This document shows positions 6,116-44,575 of a DNA stretch of 64,000 nucleotides, one piece after another. Positions within the stretch are counted from its first letter, which is position 1; every line of letters begins with the position of its first letter. The DNA lies in contig OZ024744.1 of assembly GCA_964016885.1 (NCBI GenBank), positions 60,140,001 to 60,204,000 on the forward strand, written 5' to 3'. Position numbers and translations under genes: made by a program. The notes beneath the pieces were generated by a model that made no database searches, had not been told where the DNA came from, and saw nothing but the letters and a program-made list of their open reading frames with translations. The DNA comes from Eledone cirrhosa (Eukaryota).

Positions 6116-6126
6116 TGGTGACCCCG
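6116..6126 (+). promoter_or_regulatory. Primer-binding site, tRNA-Trp
   Basis: TGGTGACCCCG is complementary to the 3' end of eukaryotic tRNA-Trp (...CGGGGTCACCA), 2 nt after the LTR. Confidence 0.85.
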
Positions 6127-6214
6127 TAAACGAATTGCGGCCTTCCTTTGAACCAGCTTCACCAACCGAACTGCATTTGGAAACAGAAACAGAACTGAGA
6201 ATTCCGCGAACACA

Positions 6215-6938
6215 ATGGCTCTCCCAGAACAGAATCCAGCGGCGAACACATCTATCGACATGGCATTCCAAGCGGCGGTCTCTTTGAGAATTCCCCAATT
6301 CTGGACACACGACCCTGCATTATGGTTTTACCATCTTCTAACCGAGTAAACAGCGATGCGTCTCGACTGTCGTATGTCATCGGTTCCCTATCGCCAGAGA
6401 TCACGAACGTCGTCCGCGATCTCATTATGGCACCACCCGTTTCTGTGTCGTACAACATTTTTAAGACGACACTCATCAACAGAACTTCCGAGTCCCAACA
6501 AAAGCGACTTCACCAGCTTCTGATATCGAAAGAATTGGGTGATAAAACGCCCTCTCAGCTTCTGCGTAGAATGAAGCAGCTTCTTGGAGATGAAAGCCTA
6601 CCCGACAAAATATTCAAGCAGCTCTTTCTCCAGCGTCTGCCCCCCAACACGCAAGTGGTCTTCGCTGCCACACGGGAATCCACATCCATTGAGGAACTGG
6701 CGGAGCTAGCGGACAAAATAGCCGACGTACCACTCAGATATGCAACAGTATCGACGGTGACGCCAGCCGCTCCCATTACCAATCCTTTCATTTCAGCGAC
6801 CAGTTCTTCAGAAATTTCGGACTTGCGTTCATTAATGACGCAGCAAGCAGCGCAGATACAGGCCCTCACAACACAAATACAGGCCCTATCGCTTGGTACC
6901 CAGCATCCAGTCCGGGAAACGACACAGCCAGGAATTGA
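6215..6938 (+). pseudogene. gag: gag, disrupted
   Basis: LRIPQFWTHDPALWF...LGDKTPSQLLRRM...QLFLQRLP motifs; frameshifted; CHCC nucleocapsid motif missing. Confidence 0.85.
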
Positions 6939-9900
6939 ACGCGACGGAAGTTCCTGGCTCGCACCCACAAAGTCGCCTGTTTTTCGTTTGCGATCGGGTA
7001 ACAGGCACACGTTTCATGGTTGACACCGACGCCGAAGTCAGCATCATCCCTGTTTCCAGCACTTCAGGAAAAAGGAAAGAGTCACCAGTTTGTCTTCAGG
7101 CAGTTAACCACTCACCCATTCCAACCTACGGTGAACAGTACCTAACACTGAGCTTAGGACTACACCGCACCTTTCAGTGGGTATTTATCATTGCTAAACT
7201 GCCGACCCCTATCTTAGGAGCCGATTTCCTGCATCATTTCGGTCTCCTGGTAGACATTAAAAATAGACGACTGGTCGACAGCACCACACAGCTTACTGTG
7301 CGCGGTATAGCCGCTCGTATGGCCACAGTAAGCCCAACTGTTATGCTCACAACAACGACTCCTCACAGTGCTATCCTGAAAGAATATCCGGACGTCGCTC
7401 GACCATTATTCCATAACCAGCCGATCAAGCACGAAATCACCCACCACATCAAAACCAGCGGTCCACCTGTTGCTGCGAGACCTAGAAGGTTACCACCTGA
7501 TCGTTTAAAGGCCGTCAAGCGGGAATTCCAGCACATGCTCGGCCTTGGAATTATCCGTCCGTCCAGCAGCAACTGGTCCTCGCCGATACACTGCGTCCCC
7601 AAAAAATCATCGACCGATTGGCGAGTTTGCGGTGATTATCGATCGCTGAATAAAAGCACTGTCAGCGATGCTTATCCAGTCCCTTATCTGCAGGATTTTT
7701 CTAGCTCGCTGCATGGAGCTCGCATTTTTACCAAGATCGACCTTGTGCGAGCATACAACCAAATCCCAGTGGAACCTGCGGACATCCCGAAGACAGCACT
7801 TACTACACCTTTCGGAATGTTTGAATTCCTGCGTATGCCTTTCGGTTTACGCAATGCGGCACAGACATTCCAAAGGTTTATAGACATGGTTACCAGAGGT
7901 TTACCTTTCGTCTATGCCTACATAGACGACATACTCGTCGCCAGTAGCTCGGACGAAGAACATCACCAACACCTCCATCTGTTCGAACGTCTGCGAAAAT
8001 ACGGCATAGTTATCAACCCGAGCAAATGTTCGTTCGGAGTTGCTTCCCTTCATTTCCTCGGTCACATCGTCGATAAGGGTGGTATTCGTCCCCTGCCCGA
8101 GAAAGTCAAGGCCATCGCGGATTTTCTACCACCCACATCTCTCCGCAAATTAAGGGAATATCTCGGGCTAGCGAACTTCTATAGAAGGTTTATACCCCAC
8201 CTCGCTGAGATAGCGCAACCGCTCACAGATTTGCTACGTCAGCGAACTTGTAAGAACACGAATATTGCCCTGGATGAAAAGCAACTCGCCTCTTGCGATG
8301 CCCTGAAAAAAGCGTTATCCAACGCTACTATGTTGGTTTATCCAAAACCAGACGCTCCACTGTGTCTACTCGCCGACGCATCCGATTCCGGAGTTGGAGG
8401 TGTGCTGCAGCAGCTTGTTGGCGGCATATGGCAACCGTTGTCCTTCTTTTCGAAGCGGTTAAAACCCGCGGAAACGAAATACAGCACATTCAGTCGGGAA
8501 TTATTAGCGGCATACCTGGCCGTTAAGCATTTTCGACACATGCTAGAAGGTACAAATTTTGCCATATACACCGACCACAAGCCACTCATATATGCATTTA
8601 ACACCAAGCCGGATCGCCACTCGCCGAGAGAAATCTGCCACCTCGACTTCATATCGCATATACGACGGATATACGCCACATCAAAGGGACGACCAACTTG
8701 GCAGCCGATGCACTTTCACGCACACAGATCAATGCTATCCACACCACTGCTACAATTGATCTGGCACGTATAGCAGTTGACAGGAGAATGACGAAGAGCT
8801 TCTAAAGCTCCGGAATTCGTCATCTCTGAAATTTCAGCATGTTCCGCTACCATCGTCCACGGCCCACATTTGGTGTGATATCTCCACCGGTCACCAACGC
8901 CCGTATGTGCCACATAAACATCGGCGAGAAGTTTTCTCTGCTCTGCATACTCTGTCACATCCTGGTATTCGCTCCACTCAAAAGCTGATATCGACCCGTT
9001 TTGTGTGGACCAGTATCAACAAGGATACCAGAGAATGGACCAAGTGCTGTGTCGCGTGCCAAAAAACGAAAATCTACCGGCACATAAAATCACCAATCGG
9101 TTCCTTTTCGCAACCTGACGCACGATTTCAGCACGTTCACATTGACATCGTGGGACCTATGCCACCTTCGCAGAATTATACATATCTGCTTACCTGCGTC
9201 GATCGTTTTTCGCGATGGCCCGAAGCTTGGCCCTTATCTGATACATCGGCAGAAACGGTCGCCAAAACGTTGATATCACAATGGGTTTCGCGTTTTGGCA
9301 CACCCGCAACAATCACCACCGACAGGGGACGACAGTTCGATTCCCACCTTTTCACCGAGCTGACTCGTCTCCTCGGGTGTAAACACACCCGCACTACGAC
9401 TTACCACCCTGCAGCAAATGGCATGGTCGAACGCTTTCACCGCCAACTCAAGGCATCCATAAAAGCATCTACAGACAGTTCTCACTGGCTGGAACATCTC
9501 CCTCTCATCCTCCTTGGTATACGATCCACGGTTGAGGAGGAACTTGGATATACTCCGGCTGAACTCGTTTATGGCACAGCACTCACCTTACCTGGGCAGA
9601 TGATCGAACCTGTTTAATCAAAAGATTTTCCTGACCCAGCACAATATGTGCACCGACTACGGACATCCATGTCGCATTTGTCACCTGCAGGCCCCAGACA
9701 ACAGAACGTCGTTTCACATGTCCCCAAAGACATCAACACGTGGACTCATGTTTTCGTGAGGAATGATGGGATACCATCTCAACTTCGGCCACCATATTCC
9801 GGGCCCTACAAAGTTATCGAAAGAGAACCCAAGTATTTCGTTCTCGATATTAGAGGTAAACGAAATACGGTATCAATCGATCGTTTAAAAAAAGCCTTCA

Positions 9901-38884: not shown

Positions 38885-39183
38885 AGAATGAATGGTTGCA
38901 CAAGGGACAACAAAAGAACAAGACCCTTTTCTCTAGGGAGATGGAGAGTAACATGGTGGTGGAATAGTAAAATAGATGAGACAATTAAAGCTAAAAGACA
39001 GGCTTGGAAAATAGGGGTAGCAGACAGGTCTACCGGAAGACTAGGAGAGAAATTAGGCAACAAATATACCTTGCAAGAAGGGAAGCAGAAGACAAAAGAT
39101 TTAAGCACATTTTGCAGCATGAGGATTAAAGGCGTGAGGTGTTCATAATCACAAGACAGTGTGTTAGGGATAATTATGATGTT
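38885..39183 (+). mobile_element. RTE-like LINE, left part (interrupted by Gypsy element 2)
   Basis: RVTWWWN...AKRQAWK; reading continues after 43661. Confidence 0.75.
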
Positions 39184-39558
39184 TGTGCGTATGGTGTGGC
39201 GTGCGGTGGCTGCAGGTGCCTAGTGGTGCCTAGCAACGGGGTGAATGCCAGTTTGGGCAGTGTCTAGCAACGGGGTGAACGCAAGTTTGGGCAGTACCTA
39301 GCGTAGTACCTAGCAACGGGGTAAACGGCAGTTTGGGATCTCCCGGTGCTAGGCAGTTGGAAGCAGGCAGGCGAGGAGTAAGGAACAGTGACGATAGCAG
39401 CGCTAGTGAAAAGAGCAAAACGATATGGGACTGTTGATACGAAGAGACGGCCAACTGAGGAAGACGGATGTACAAGAAATGGTCTTCAAACTACCATGCA
39501 GTGGAGATTGAGCGGCGCCTTTGAAAAGCGGTAAGTGAGATAGCTTTTTCCAACCACA
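39184..39558 (+). repeat. 5' LTR of Gypsy element 2 (375 bp)
   Basis: TGTGCGTATG...AACCACA; internal ~34-bp repeats. Confidence 0.95.
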
Positions 39559-39570
39559 AGCTATTTCGGC
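39559..39570 (+). promoter_or_regulatory. Putative PBS complementary to nt 1-12 of tRNA-Phe
   Basis: AGCTATTTCGGC is the reverse complement of GCCGAAATAGCT, the 5' end of animal tRNA-Phe(GAA). Confidence 0.7.
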
Positions 39571-39683
39571 AACAGGAAACAGATCGGACTGAACAAAGAA
39601 AAAAAGAAGAAAAAGCTACTGGAAAAACAGAGAGGAGTCTGTTGTTTTTTTTTTTTGTCACTTACCGCTATACAAATCAGAGG

Positions 39684-40445
39684 ATGGCGACAAGACTACG
39701 GACGAGCGAAGCCATCAGGGCATTTACCGGGGAGGGTAATGTAATCGCTTGGCTGCGGAAAGTTCGGCTGGTCGCAAGCTTGCAGAAGATAGAGGATGTG
39801 GCTGGCCTAATGGCACTCTACCTCGAGGGAGACGCGCTGGTACTCTTCCTTGAGTTGGACGAGCACAGCCAAAGAGATGCGCAGAAGTTTGAGCGGCGTC
39901 TGATAGATGCATTCGCCGAGGGACCGTTGGCAGCTTTTGCTAAGCTGGCGAGAATCAGGTGGAATGGTGAGCGCGTCGACATTTTCACAGCGGAAATACG
40001 GCGGTTGGCCATGTTGGCTGGTTATCAGGCGGAATGCGAACGAACGGTGCGGTTGGCGTTCATTAATGGATTTCCAGACGACATAGCGGTGAGGCTGCAG
40101 CAAGTCCCGGGTTATAAAGAGATGGAAATGCGTTCACTGGTGGGACAAGCCCGGATCATAGCGGAAGATGCCAAAAAGAGTGTTGCGGCGATAGCAACTA
40201 CGGAGGCTCAGGACACTTGGCAGCGAAACGGTGAAAGGGAGGCAACCTCGGCACGCGGTCGCCCGCGAATGTTTAGAGGGCGCTGTTTTCATTGTCAGGG
40301 CCCGCACATGGCTAGAGACTGTAGAGAGTTGAGGCCGGAAAAAATTTGCTACCGGTGTAAGCGACCAGGCCACATCGCTACTAACTGCGACCAGGGAAAC
40401 GATCCAAGGGGAACTACTGCGCCGGTAGTTGCCCCTTACGAGTAG
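39684..40445 (+). CDS. gag: gag with two zinc knuckles (open ORF)
   Basis: ATG 39684 to stop 40445; CFHCQGPHMARDC and CYRCKRPGHIATNC; G GGA AAC slippery site at 40394-40400. Confidence 0.85.
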   Translation: MATRLRTSEAIRAFTGEGNVIAWLRKVRLVASLQKIEDVAGLMALYLEGDALVLFLELDEHSQRDAQKFERRLIDAFAEGPLAAFAKLARIRWNGERVDIFTAEIRRLAMLAGYQAECERTVRLAFINGFPDDIAVRLQQVPGYKEMEMRSLVGQARIIAEDAKKSVAAIATTEAQDTWQRNGEREATSARGRPRMFRGRCFHCQGPHMARDCRELRPEKICYRCKRPGHIATNCDQGNDPRGTTAPVVAPYE

Positions 40446-43251
40446 CGGCGCTGCCCGTGGTGGAAGTCTTCGTGAGGGGGAAGCCACAGCGAGCCCCCGT
40501 GGACACGGGCTGTACAACGACACTGGTGACCGCGGGTGTGGCGCAGAGGTGGGGAGGGAAGAGCAGTGTAAGGGCAGTCGACGGCAGGAAAATCGAATGC
40601 CGAGGTCGCAGCGAGATGGAAATAGCAGTACGGGGTAGGAGGATAAAGCTTTCGGACATTGTAGTAGACAGTGTGGTGGATGGGATCGGCGTGGTTATGG
40701 GCATGGACGCGATTGGCCGTTTAGGAGGCGTCACAGTGGACAACCTCGGTGTGTCGTTTGGCGCCGCTGCATCGGCATGCGCTGTGAGTGCACGTCATGA
40801 GAACCAGAAGGCCCACGAGGAGGAATAACCCGCTTACACTGTGCAGGACAAAGACTTCAAGGCCATGTTCGATGGGCAGCGATGGGTTGTTGAGTGGTAC
40901 TGGAAGGGAGAACCACCAACACTGAAGACCAAAGTGGGCTGCTATCAACATACATTGAAGGGAAACGTTAGGAGCAAGTTCGAGCGAGAAGTAGAGAGAT
41001 GGATCGAAGAGGGCATACTGCTTCCCTGGAAGGAGGAGGTGAAGTGCGGAGTATTGCCGTTAATGGCGGTGGTGCAACCCACGAAGAGCAAGGTGAGGCC
41101 GGTGCTGGACTATCGGGAGCTGAACGAGCACGTGTCATGCCACACGGATGGCGAGGTCACGGATATCTGTGAGGAAACCCTGCGTGAGTGGAGACGCATG
41201 ACGGGGCGTTCAGCGATCGTAGACCTAAAGTCGGCTTACTTGCAGTTGCATATAGATGAGAAGCTCTGGTGGTATCAGCTGGTCAGGTATAAGAGCCAGA
41301 CATATTGCCTGACCAGGCTCGGTTTCGGGCTGAGCTCCACACCGAAGATCATGGCGGCGGTCCTCAAGACCATTCTGGGGAAGGCTGACAAGATAAAGAG
41401 GGCTACTAACTCCTACATTGACGACATCTTAGTGGACGAGTCGGTGGTGTCGGCGGCGAAGGTCAAGAGCCGTTTACAGGGGTACGGACTGGCTGCGAAG
41501 CCGTCAGAAGCATTGGAGGGAGGAGCCGCGCTGGGACTTAGGCTACGGCGAGACAGGACGGGCATCTTGGTATTCCAGAGGGGAAATGAGGTTCCAGAAC
41601 TGGGCCCAAGTATAAGTAGGCGGGAGCTTTTCTCGGTGTGCGGAAAGCTGGTGGGTCATTACCCGATCGCTGGGTGGCTCCGGACGGCATGCAGCTATGT
41701 CAAGAGACGAGCGGGAGGAGTGACTTGGAGTGACAGAGTGAGAGAGAGGACGGTGGCCATGATGCAGGAGATCGTGGGAAGGGTGAAGGCCGACGACCCA
41801 GTGCGGGGACGCTGGTATGTTCCCAAATCACAGAGCGGGACCATGTGGTGCGATGCCAGCAGTATAGCGCTGGGTGTCACGTTGGAGATAGGAGGTGTTG
41901 AGGTCGAGGATGCAGCCTGGCTCAGGAAGAAGGACGACTGCAATCACATCAATGTGGCCGAACTGGTGAACGTCGCCCTGCGGTGGGGGCTGCACACCAT
42001 CGAGATACGCACCGACTCGGCTACTGTACTCAGATGGGTGAGATCAGTGCTCACCAGTGAGAAGAGAGTGCGAACGAGAGGCGTGGTGGAGATGCTGATA
42101 AAGCGCCGCCTGGGAACTTTAGGAGAGCTGGCCACCGAGTTGACCTGAGGCTGAGCGTAGTTTTCGTGCCCTCAGAGAAAAATAGGGCGGACATATTAAC
42201 TAGGGTGAAGAAAGCCTGGATGGGAGCACAGGAGGAGGTAGAGGATGAGAAAGCTACTGTGTGTCGGCTGACCGAGTTGGATCTGAAGGGGTTGCATGAC
42301 ATGCACCACATGGGGGTGGATATGAGCCTGTTCCTAGCCAGGAGAATCAACCCGGACATTAGCAGACACAGTGTTCAGGGAGTGGTTAGAGGCTGCGTCC
42401 GATGTCAGTCCATTGATCCCGCCCCAGGTGTACACGTAACGGGAAGCCTCCCGGAGGATTGCGACTGGAAGCGATTAGCGGTGGATGTGACGCACTACCG
42501 ACAGGGAACGTACCTCTCGATGGTCGACTGTGGACCAGGTCGAATGGCGATATGGAGGGAGATGAAGACTGGAACGGCCGAGGAAATCGTGCGGACATTG
42601 AGAGAGGTATTCTTGGAGCGGTGCCCTGTGGACGAACTGCTGATGGACAACAGCGCAGCGTTCCGCTCGAAGGCACTGAGGGAGATGCTCGTTGGATGGA
42701 AGGTGAACCATTTCTTCAAAGCGGCGCACAGGCCGACTGGGAATGGAATCGTGGAGCGACACCACCGGACAATCAAGGCAATGGCAGAGCGGGGCCATGT
42801 CTCACCAATGGAGGCAGTGTTCTGGTACAACATGTCCCCTCGGGTTGGACAGGTCGAGGAATCGGTGCCACACAGAGCAGTATTCAAATACGAGTGGAGG
42901 CACCCGTGCACGCCACCACAACGGCCAGTGGGGAAAGAGAGTGCATTCGTGCAGGTGGACGAAGAAGTCTGGGTTAAGCCCCCAGATGCACGTTGCACAT
43001 CTCAATGGGGAAGGGGAACAGTGACGGCTGTAAATTCAAAGAACAATGTGTCCGTGGACGGGGTACCACGTGATGTCCTGGATGTAAGAAGAATCACTGT
43101 GTCGACGGACTCCGAGGAAGAGGAAACCCAAGATGAGGTGGAAACTCAGAGCCCTGCCCCAATACTACGGAGATCGCAACGATGTCGTAGACCACCAACC
43201 TGGACAGCAGACTTCCACATGGAGAGAGACGAGGAGGAAATTGATCCTTGA
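40394..43251 (+). pseudogene. pol: pol (protease, RT, RNase H, integrase), disrupted
   Basis: VDTGC, RPVLDYRELN, DLKSAY, YIDD, CDASS, H..HHMG...CVRC, AVDVT/MDN/GIVERHH; in-frame TAA at 40826-40828 and frameshift near 42148. Confidence 0.92.
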
Positions 43252-43264
43252 GATCAGGGGGGCG

Positions 43265-43656
43265 TGTGGGTATGGTGTGGCGTGTGGGTATGGTGTGGCG
43301 TGCGGTGGCTGCAGGTGCCTAGTGGTGCCTAGCAACTGGGTGAACGCCAGTTTGGGCAGTGTCTAGCAACGGGGTGAATGCAAGTTTGGGCAGTACCTAG
43401 CGTAGTACCTAGCAATGGGGTAAATGCCAGTTTGGGATCTCCCAGTGCTAGGCAATTGGAAGCAGGCAGGAGAGGAGTAAGGAGCAGGATGATAGCAGCG
43501 CTAGTGAAAAGAGCAAAACGATATGGGACTGTTGATACGAAGAGACGGCCAACCGAGGAAGACGGATGTTCAAGAAATGGTCTTCAAACTACCATGCAGT
43601 GGAGATTGAGCGGCGCCTTTGAAAAGCGGTAAGTGAGATAGCTTTTTCAAACCACA
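43265..43656 (+). repeat. 3' LTR of Gypsy element 2 (392 bp)
   Basis: Copy of the 5' LTR with an extra 18-bp unit at its start and roughly 15 substitutions (counted by eye). Confidence 0.93.
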
Positions 43657-44575
43657 ATGTTGATGGAGTGAAGTGTGTCTGAAATGATTTTGGTGAACTT
43701 GCCCTCACTGACACTGAAAAGAAAGTAGCATGGAAGTGCCACTATGAAAGATTACTGAATGAAGAGAATGCATGGGATGAAGACAGTCTGTCACATTTCG
43801 ACCCAACCAAGTCCCAACCAAGTCATACAACAAAGTCATACAAAATAGTGTCATACCCAATGACTGGTGTAGCAGCAGCATCATAAACTGTTACAAGGGC
43901 AAAGGTGATGCTCTAGGTAGGGAAAAAATTATAGAGGCATTAAGTTGGTTGAGCAGGTTTTGAAGGTCACTGAAAGAGTCATATCTCAGTTGATTAGGAA
44001 ATGAGCTAACCTAGATGAGGGGTTTGTACCAGGTAAAAGTACCACAGATGCCTCTTCTTTGAAAGACAACTGCATGAGAAGTACCTAGCTAAGAGTAAAC
44101 CTCTCTACTTGGCTTTTTTAGACCTGGAGAAAACACGTTCCATTATCTGGTGGACTGTTAGAAAACTAGGTGTAGAAAACAAAGAACGTAGGTTTTACAT
44201 GCGGTCAGTGCACAGGAGCAATAAATAGCAAGAGCTCTCAGGATGCAATCACCTTCAAATGCCCTGAGGGCTCTATAGAAGAGGTAGATAGCTTATGTTA
44301 CCTGGGTGACCAAATCAGTGGTGGGGGAGGGTGTTCCAAAAGTACAGTAGCCAGAGTGAGATAGGGTTGGATAAAGTTCAGGGATCTTCTACTGCTGCTA
44401 ATTACAAAAGGTTTTTCCCTCAAAATGAAAGGCAGACTGTATGGTGCATACATACAAACAACTATGTTGCACAGCAGCGAGACCTGGGCACTGTGTGCAG
44501 AGGACCTGTGAAGACTGGAGAGAAATGAAGCCTCCATACTTTGATGGGTGTGCAACAGCAACATACGAGGAGTGC
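43657..44575 (+). mobile_element. RTE-like LINE, right part
   Basis: AWKCHYERLLNEENAW, YKGKGDA, NYRGIKL, LAFLDLEK, EEVDSLCYLGDQI, TMLHSSETWAL. Confidence 0.8.

Follow-up and report, generated by a model that had tools for sequence, protein, structure and literature searches.

Half-tRNA priming of the hemivirus type, in which the primer is the 5' piece of a cut tRNA, is used by Drosophila copia and Ty5, and for copia an RNase P-type hyperprocessing activity has reportedly been proposed as the source of the cut; the primer of Tf1 is 11 nt long. In plants half-tRNA priming is described for Osser, Bryco, Gymco-II and Bianca, all of them Ty1/copia elements, with the cut in the anticodon stem, and the accessible text of the same source gives three known kinds of LTR-element primer, namely an entire tRNA, a half of this kind, and a self-primer (PMC6317226). 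The Eledone cirrhosa element described here resembles both half-tRNA and Tf1 priming in its apparent mechanism and, on our best reading of the sequence, would belong to neither. As in half-tRNA priming, the primer would be the 5' piece of a cut tRNA with its new 3' end facing U5, to judge from complementarity and polarity. In the half-tRNA systems the site is complementary to an interior part of tRNA-Met or -Ile that ends within the anticodon stem; the site here instead matches nt 1–12 of tRNA-Phe or -Lys, and whereas the plant examples are Ty1/copia, the domain order here is PR-RT-RH-IN. As in Tf1/sushi, a short primer taken from the very 5' terminus of an RNA is proposed to be annealed flush with the LTR and freed by a cut; the RNA is the element's own transcript in Tf1/sushi, whereas here it would be a host tRNA, the longest complement in the LTR being 7 nt.

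The window, that is, the whole stretch of DNA analyzed, comprises 64,000 nt of the E. cirrhosa genome (GCA_964016885.1, contig OZ024744.1:60,140,001–60,204,000, forward strand); coordinates below are window positions, and all features of the element lie on the + strand. A target site duplication (TSD), ATGTT (39179–39183), precedes the 5' LTR (375 bp, TG...CA, 39184–39558), and a second ATGTT (43657–43661) follows the 3' LTR (43265–43656), which starts with an 18-bp duplication and is 95–98% identical to its partner. Flush with the 5' LTR lies the candidate primer-binding site, a 12-mer (39559–39570) exactly complementary to nt 1–12 of host tRNA-Phe(GAA), and the base past it (39571) is variable, being A in the window copy and G, C, A or absent in others. 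Further downstream are a gag ORF of 253 aa with zinc knuckles (39684–40445), an aspartic-protease-like frame (40442–40828) whose counterparts in relatives have protease Pfam matches, a region encoding RT (YIDD), DUF7047 and RNase H (40829–42148), an integrase frame (weak rve match, 42061–43251), and a polypurine tract similar in many relatives (43250–43264). In the window copy a stop codon ends the protease frame, and the RT-RNase H region stops at a frame break ahead of the integrase. The general features of an LTR retrotransposon are all present: paired TG...CA LTRs, a TSD, Gag, protease, RT, RNase H, a DDE integrase and a polypurine tract. A GATC-nnnn-GATC palindrome (43240–43264) ahead of the polypurine tract is seen in many distant relatives as well.

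The initial annotation placed the 5' LTR end at 39558 with the 12-mer directly adjoining, and this boundary is borne out by the ATGTT TSD, by the 3' LTR and by the ends of other copies, although formally, in the window copy, the repeat could be drawn to include the initial A of the 12-mer. Of 28 other genome copies with both ends located, 20 have a 5-bp TSD and an LTR ending in ...ACA, one has a 4-bp TSD and seven have none. The LTR pairs of four unrelated relatives (L058, L066, L075, and L096) stop at the same point or at most 1 nt away.

Host tRNA-Phe does begin with the reverse complement of the 12-mer, as stated when the site was first noted: the match is 12/12, and a genome pattern search combining the 12-mer, a gap and the acceptor 3' strand gave 222 tRNA-Phe gene matches against 0 in the control. 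ARAGORN identified L001 and L004 as tRNA-Phe(GAA), starting at the G that begins the reverse complement. Complementarity stops at both ends of the site. On the LTR side tRNA C13 is opposite the last A of the LTR, and on the far side T, the complement of the A preceding the tRNA genes seen, follows the site in 0/83 copies. The 12-mer occurs once within the 64-kb window; ACA plus the 12-mer gave 485 genome matches, compared with one for the reversed control, and the loose motif CAMGCTANNNNGGC has an expectation of 0.11 per window, so the LTR-adjacent tRNA match is not due to chance. The tRNA-Phe genes include a tandem array of at least 98 members (C4:117.36–117.54 Mb), interleaved with tRNA-Asn in L004, and there are tRNA-Lys(CTT) arrays at C4:79.56 and C4:128.68 Mb.

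An RT search of the host genome returned 1309 candidates, of which the 150 scored are 85–100% identical. Among 83 copies with both junction and gag (duplicates merged; 16 loci with no junction or a short gag left out), 74 carry the 12-mer perfectly and the remainder have one or two changes. Distant families in the same genome (L302, L303, and L305; pol 43–68% identical) have kept the 12-mer next to unrelated LTR ends. A genome search with the Octopus protein P0065 returned the same family only, and Lys-type or TCCC-type sites after ACA had 0 matches in the host genome. Sixteen extra junctions from this genome, chosen mostly for unusual leaders and including those of these distant families, comprise 10 ahead of lineage gag or pol, five in a capturing repeat and one without a coding match. 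The capturing repeat (L296, L300, L301, L307, and L308; e.g. L300:445–790) is a multi-copy 3.8-kb sequence with a DUF4371 coding region, presumably hAT-like, that carries an LTR of the lineage, the 12-mer and ~80 nt of leader between two ~20-bp copies, with neither gag nor pol. A further copy with both LTRs and a TSD jumps from just past the primer site to mid-RT (L297:704–720).

The prediction that the tRNA-5'-end complement would be kept next to the LTR while LTRs and leaders diverge was examined beyond the host and held there as in the distant host families. From 150 metagenomic relatives 78 loci were kept (protein identity 38–56%; L083, a false site call inside pol, was left out), and 61 of the 63 loci that reach the junction have an LTR-adjacent 12-mer of the tRNA-5'-end type between unrelated flanks: 60 by pattern and L097 on the other strand, with L074 partial, L071 lacking the site and 15/78 short of the junction. 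Across 47 distinct junctions the information content is 1.7 bits at site position 12 but 0.31 at position 13 and, upstream, 1.58 bits at −3 but 0.53 at −4, leaving ACA plus 12 nt as the only conserved block; calling sites by pattern partly builds in the invariance at positions 2–5, 10 and −1. A gag-anchored alignment, which uses no pattern and gives an unbiased view, makes the sites visible too. ARAGORN found no tRNA gene on the 60 of 78 metagenomic loci to which it was applied, and it makes no call at a tRNA-like stretch in the leader past the primer site of one locus (L109:1833–1960). Six candidate stretches on viral contigs contained 0 relatives.

Variation within the site lies mainly opposite tRNA nt 4–7, and 30 of the 47 distinct junctions exactly match an observed tRNA 5' end (three Phe variants and two Lys). 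The starts concerned are those of the host's own tRNA-Phe (11/47) and Lys-CTT (1/47), of planarian tRNA-Phe (10/47) and Lys-TTT (2/47) in the tRNA table of the PMC7962491 supplement, and of eukaryote-type tRNA-Phe genes on contigs of metagenome-assembled genomes (MAGs; 6/47, from a search directed at such tRNAs); the host-type tRNA-Phe start has 0 matches in the accessible planarian table. The MAG-borne genes (L231, L234, L255, and L259) lie on short contigs of bacterial MAGs and are likely contamination. Thirteen junctions are variants without a matching eukaryotic tRNA here, and four have damaged 3' ends. A TCTA-type site is matched solely by a bacterial tRNA-Phe, and the CCTC, TCCC, TTAC, and CGCT types have no tRNA match, with 0 matches in the tRNA lists of the searchable supplements of PMC2770079 and PMC3333845 and three unrelated papers in a text search. 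A Met-like tRNA pattern had 0 matches in the host genome. Tentative identification of tRNA-Phe as the source thus stands for the host and for other Phe variants but does not extend to the whole lineage, where Lys variants occur and the CGCT type is unmatched. Since metagenomic loci carry no host label, the match of site to host is demonstrated for the E. cirrhosa genome only.

On an RT tree (96 rows, a quick LG+G4 analysis with one gypsy outgroup), site types cluster, yet 19 switches separate the 56 rows labeled by site type, compared with a minimum of 29 and a mean of 36.5 in shuffles; the planarian-type site is nested within own-type sites. In two families site position 1 is C instead of A, as would fit a tRNA with G12, although no such tRNA was found. 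Because of this change all 12 nt appear to pair, rather than 10 followed by a 2-nt gap, and of the primer length of ~10–12 nt first suggested, 12 is favored and 10 is not.

Taken with the polarity of the site, these observations suggest that the primer is very probably a 12-nt 5'-terminal tRNA fragment, and in this host reverse transcription is quite likely to start from the front 12 nt of tRNA-Phe once these have been cut off, the element's RNase H being the likeliest agent. In the proposed sequence of events, the acceptor stem and the 5' strand of the D-stem of the tRNA would be opened and annealed to the site; cleavage of the tRNA at 12|13 would produce a 3'-OH, and since tRNA U12 lies opposite the base that immediately follows the LTR, this 3'-OH would point into U5; and RT would extend the 12-nt fragment into U5. 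Plus-strand synthesis would then copy the primer to its 5' end, so that the site is rewritten from the host's tRNA, with an occasional untemplated base just past it, and integration would give the TG...CA ends and the 5-bp duplication. In retroviruses the site is indeed copied from the primer, but such copying is not general, since Ty1 and Ty3 inherit their site (accessible text of PMC7472051). More tentatively, the RT-RNase H of what may be an unnamed, superfamily-level lineage marked by DUF7047 might itself measure and cut a 12-nt 5' piece of host tRNA-Phe or -Lys, in the manner of Tf1 but in trans, rewriting the site according to the host. If the proposal is correct, a 12-nt 5'-terminal tRNA piece would be a fourth type of LTR-element primer beside the three given in the accessible text of PMC6317226, linking the half-tRNA and Tf1 modes. 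It would also assign a definite function to 5' tRNA fragments of very small size and would mean that some activity, either an RNase H or one from the host, cleaves tRNAs within the D-stem; the failure of annotation based on 3'-end sites to detect these elements would likewise be accounted for. No report of a primer site that pairs with the 5' end of a tRNA was found in the accessible literature searched (subscription journals, Repbase Reports, GyDB and some supplements lying outside its scope).

That the element's own RNase H makes the cut has, in our estimate, slightly less than even odds; its catalytic D, E, and D are kept in 57–58 of 59 proteins, as would be expected in any case, and the geometry is the same as in Tf1. 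The strongest alternative, plausible though somewhat short of an even prospect, differs in the cutting step alone: a 5' tRNA fragment or half anneals, and a host nuclease then trims or cuts it to nt 12. Such a cut and one by the element's RNase H would give the same sequence record. Against a host-made primer, the ends left by many host nucleases that cleave tRNA are not extendable, and the length stays at 12 throughout the lineage and whichever tRNA is matched, as a ruler in the element's enzyme would account for. On the other side, more than one type of tRNA would be used, and the types matched, Phe and Lys, have G1-C2-C3 and U8-A9-G10-C11 in common; short 5' tRNA fragments moreover occur in invertebrates, according to the accessible part of PMC7962491.

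Priming by a 12-nt fragment also has to be weighed against a role of the site outside priming, in which it would bind a tRNA or fragment for packaging, silencing or translation control while DNA synthesis starts otherwise, e.g. by protein priming. The gag ATG lies 0–26 nt past the site in 48/50 relatives, and among named clusters the language-model features of the RT resemble those of hepadnaviral P protein (score 0.95, 167 shared features), a similarity that serves as a lead only. However, the position of the site is fixed relative to the LTR end and not to the ATG, leaders of 104–125 nt also existing; the polarity of the site suits priming; no second primer site is present; and Gag-PR-RT-RH-IN contains no terminal-protein region. 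We consider this role improbable.

Still less probable is priming by an intact tRNA from its CCA end, with the 12-mer as the 5' half of a split site such as that of Ty3. Whole tRNA does co-fold with the leader (−46.7 kcal/mol, vs −35.9 apart), but the last 18 nt of the tRNA pair weakly with the leader (−9.4) compared with the first 18 (−22.2), and the 12-mer fills the very spot required for the start of synthesis. The lack of a normal TGG site, part of the initial annotation, extends moreover from the window junction to the relatives, 60/60 of which have no TGG within 0–5 nt of the LTR. Tf1-type self-priming, in which a U5 segment pairing with the site would be the transcript 5' end, cut off as primer, and the tRNA match incidental, is the least probable of all and was rejected because no perfect LTR complement exceeds 7 nt in 51 junctions (50 from relatives, 150–350 nt upstream, and the window): although U5 of the window family pairs with 10–11 nt of the site, the duplexes are about as stable as shuffled ones (z below −2 in three), the U5 partner varies with G-U pairs whereas the site remains a perfect tRNA complement, and that partner ends ~13 nt from the LTR end, too short for strand transfer.

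The U5 segment in question (39529–39547) has two predicted pairing partners, the primer site (39559–39569, through ~39536–39547 and including G-U pairs) and 39658–39670, before the gag ATG, and may be a switch for primer loading or translation. The stem between U5 and the primer site is kept via one-sided changes in the host sublineage only and is absent from distant relatives. In the window family U5 also pairs with the D-loop of the tRNA, but this was discarded as a general feature, not being conserved across the 47 junctions.

Reverse transcriptases add untemplated bases at template ends, and the base just past the site behaves in a way consistent with priming by a 12-nt fragment. Among the 83 own copies this base (+13) is G in 32, missing in 31, A in 10 and C in 10, and it changes seven times on the gag tree, a number reached by 4/737 gag columns, the tree being derived from the same columns. 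Four states, each at ≥5 copies, are reached by none of the 13 gag columns that are multi-state, and the two copies within L050 also differ at this base. The indel and substitution hot spot at +13 is thus a candidate footprint of the template end, with modest support; it is not unique, however, since U5 position −4 (window 39555) undergoes a C/T change 11 times on the same tree, exceeding every gag column.

The element shares with Ty3/gypsy (Metaviridae) a Gag with CCHC knuckles, PR-RT-RH-IN order, TG...CA LTRs, a 5-bp TSD and a polypurine tract. In contrast to that group, the gypsy RNase H models PF17917 and PF17919 are matched by 0/59 lineage proteins at E 0.01, and the best RVT_1 match has an E value of 7e-9. 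An ordinary Ty3/gypsy element in the same window (6116–9617), which served as control, scores 92–97 bits on PF17917 and PF17919 (92–107 bits over the gypsy-type models) and has a TGG-type primer site at ~6117. The element is not an ordinary Ty3/gypsy. Nor does it have the integrase-before-RT order of Ty1/copia. Peptidase_A17 (PF05380), diagnostic in the BEL/Pao comparison, is absent from the 14 families matched by the 59 proteins and from nine long relatives, and a BEL/Pao reference search of the host genome gave one broken match. An rve integrase is found in place of the tyrosine recombinase of DIRS-like elements; we take the RNase H motifs of the lineage to resemble those of DIRS and BEL. 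The best PDB sequence match is weak (HIV-2 RT, E 2e-7), and the predicted RT model (pLDDT 91.9) is about equally near the RTs of MLV, Ty3, CaMV, and foamy virus (Z 21.4–22.1, rmsd 4.0, 350–392 residues aligned, 13–16% identity).

Troyka/Kuafuorterviruses, formerly placed in gypsy, likewise form a divergent LTR lineage of animals and have the PR-RT-RH-IN order. According to the accessible texts they have CG...CG ends, a 3-bp TSD, xADD and a long-spaced zinc finger (PMC12440569; PMC11673190), whereas the lineage here has TG...CA ends, a 5-bp TSD (20/28), a standard knuckle and YxDD (YIDD in 41 of 59 proteins, YVDD in eight, YLDD in four and xADD in none). Membership was rejected on the ends, the TSD and YxDD. 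The terms PBS, tRNA and primer have 0 occurrences in the Troyka main text, and the LGFGL motif of the lineage has 0 matches in the PMC11673190 supplement, whose aligned reference RTs give 183 FGL matches and contain gaps that could hide the motif. A description of the lineage was not found in the accessible parts of the literature searched, which included PMC11673190, PMC12440569, PMC6317226, PMC7472051, PMC12859917, PMC6238403, PMC8556966, and PMC7962491.

The lineage is large, with ~485 primer-site copies in the host genome and 1096 clusters (50% identity) in a profile search at E up to 1e-30, and appears to be unclassified. Relatives with source names come from Octopus, Argonauta, Aplysia, Plakobranchus, crustaceans, Nymphon, Macrosteles, Watersipora, Hydra, Trichuris, and Sycon, and the elements probably form an unnamed lineage whose range takes in sponges, cnidarians, nematodes, molluscs and arthropods. 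Five proteins (P0185, P0193, P0197, P0199, and P0201) make up a deeper branch of the lineage, beside which Atlas clusters with a few Euglenozoa records also score 0.96; the branch has a single Gag-Pol of 1340–1420 aa, and two of its clusters are named from the sponge Sycon.
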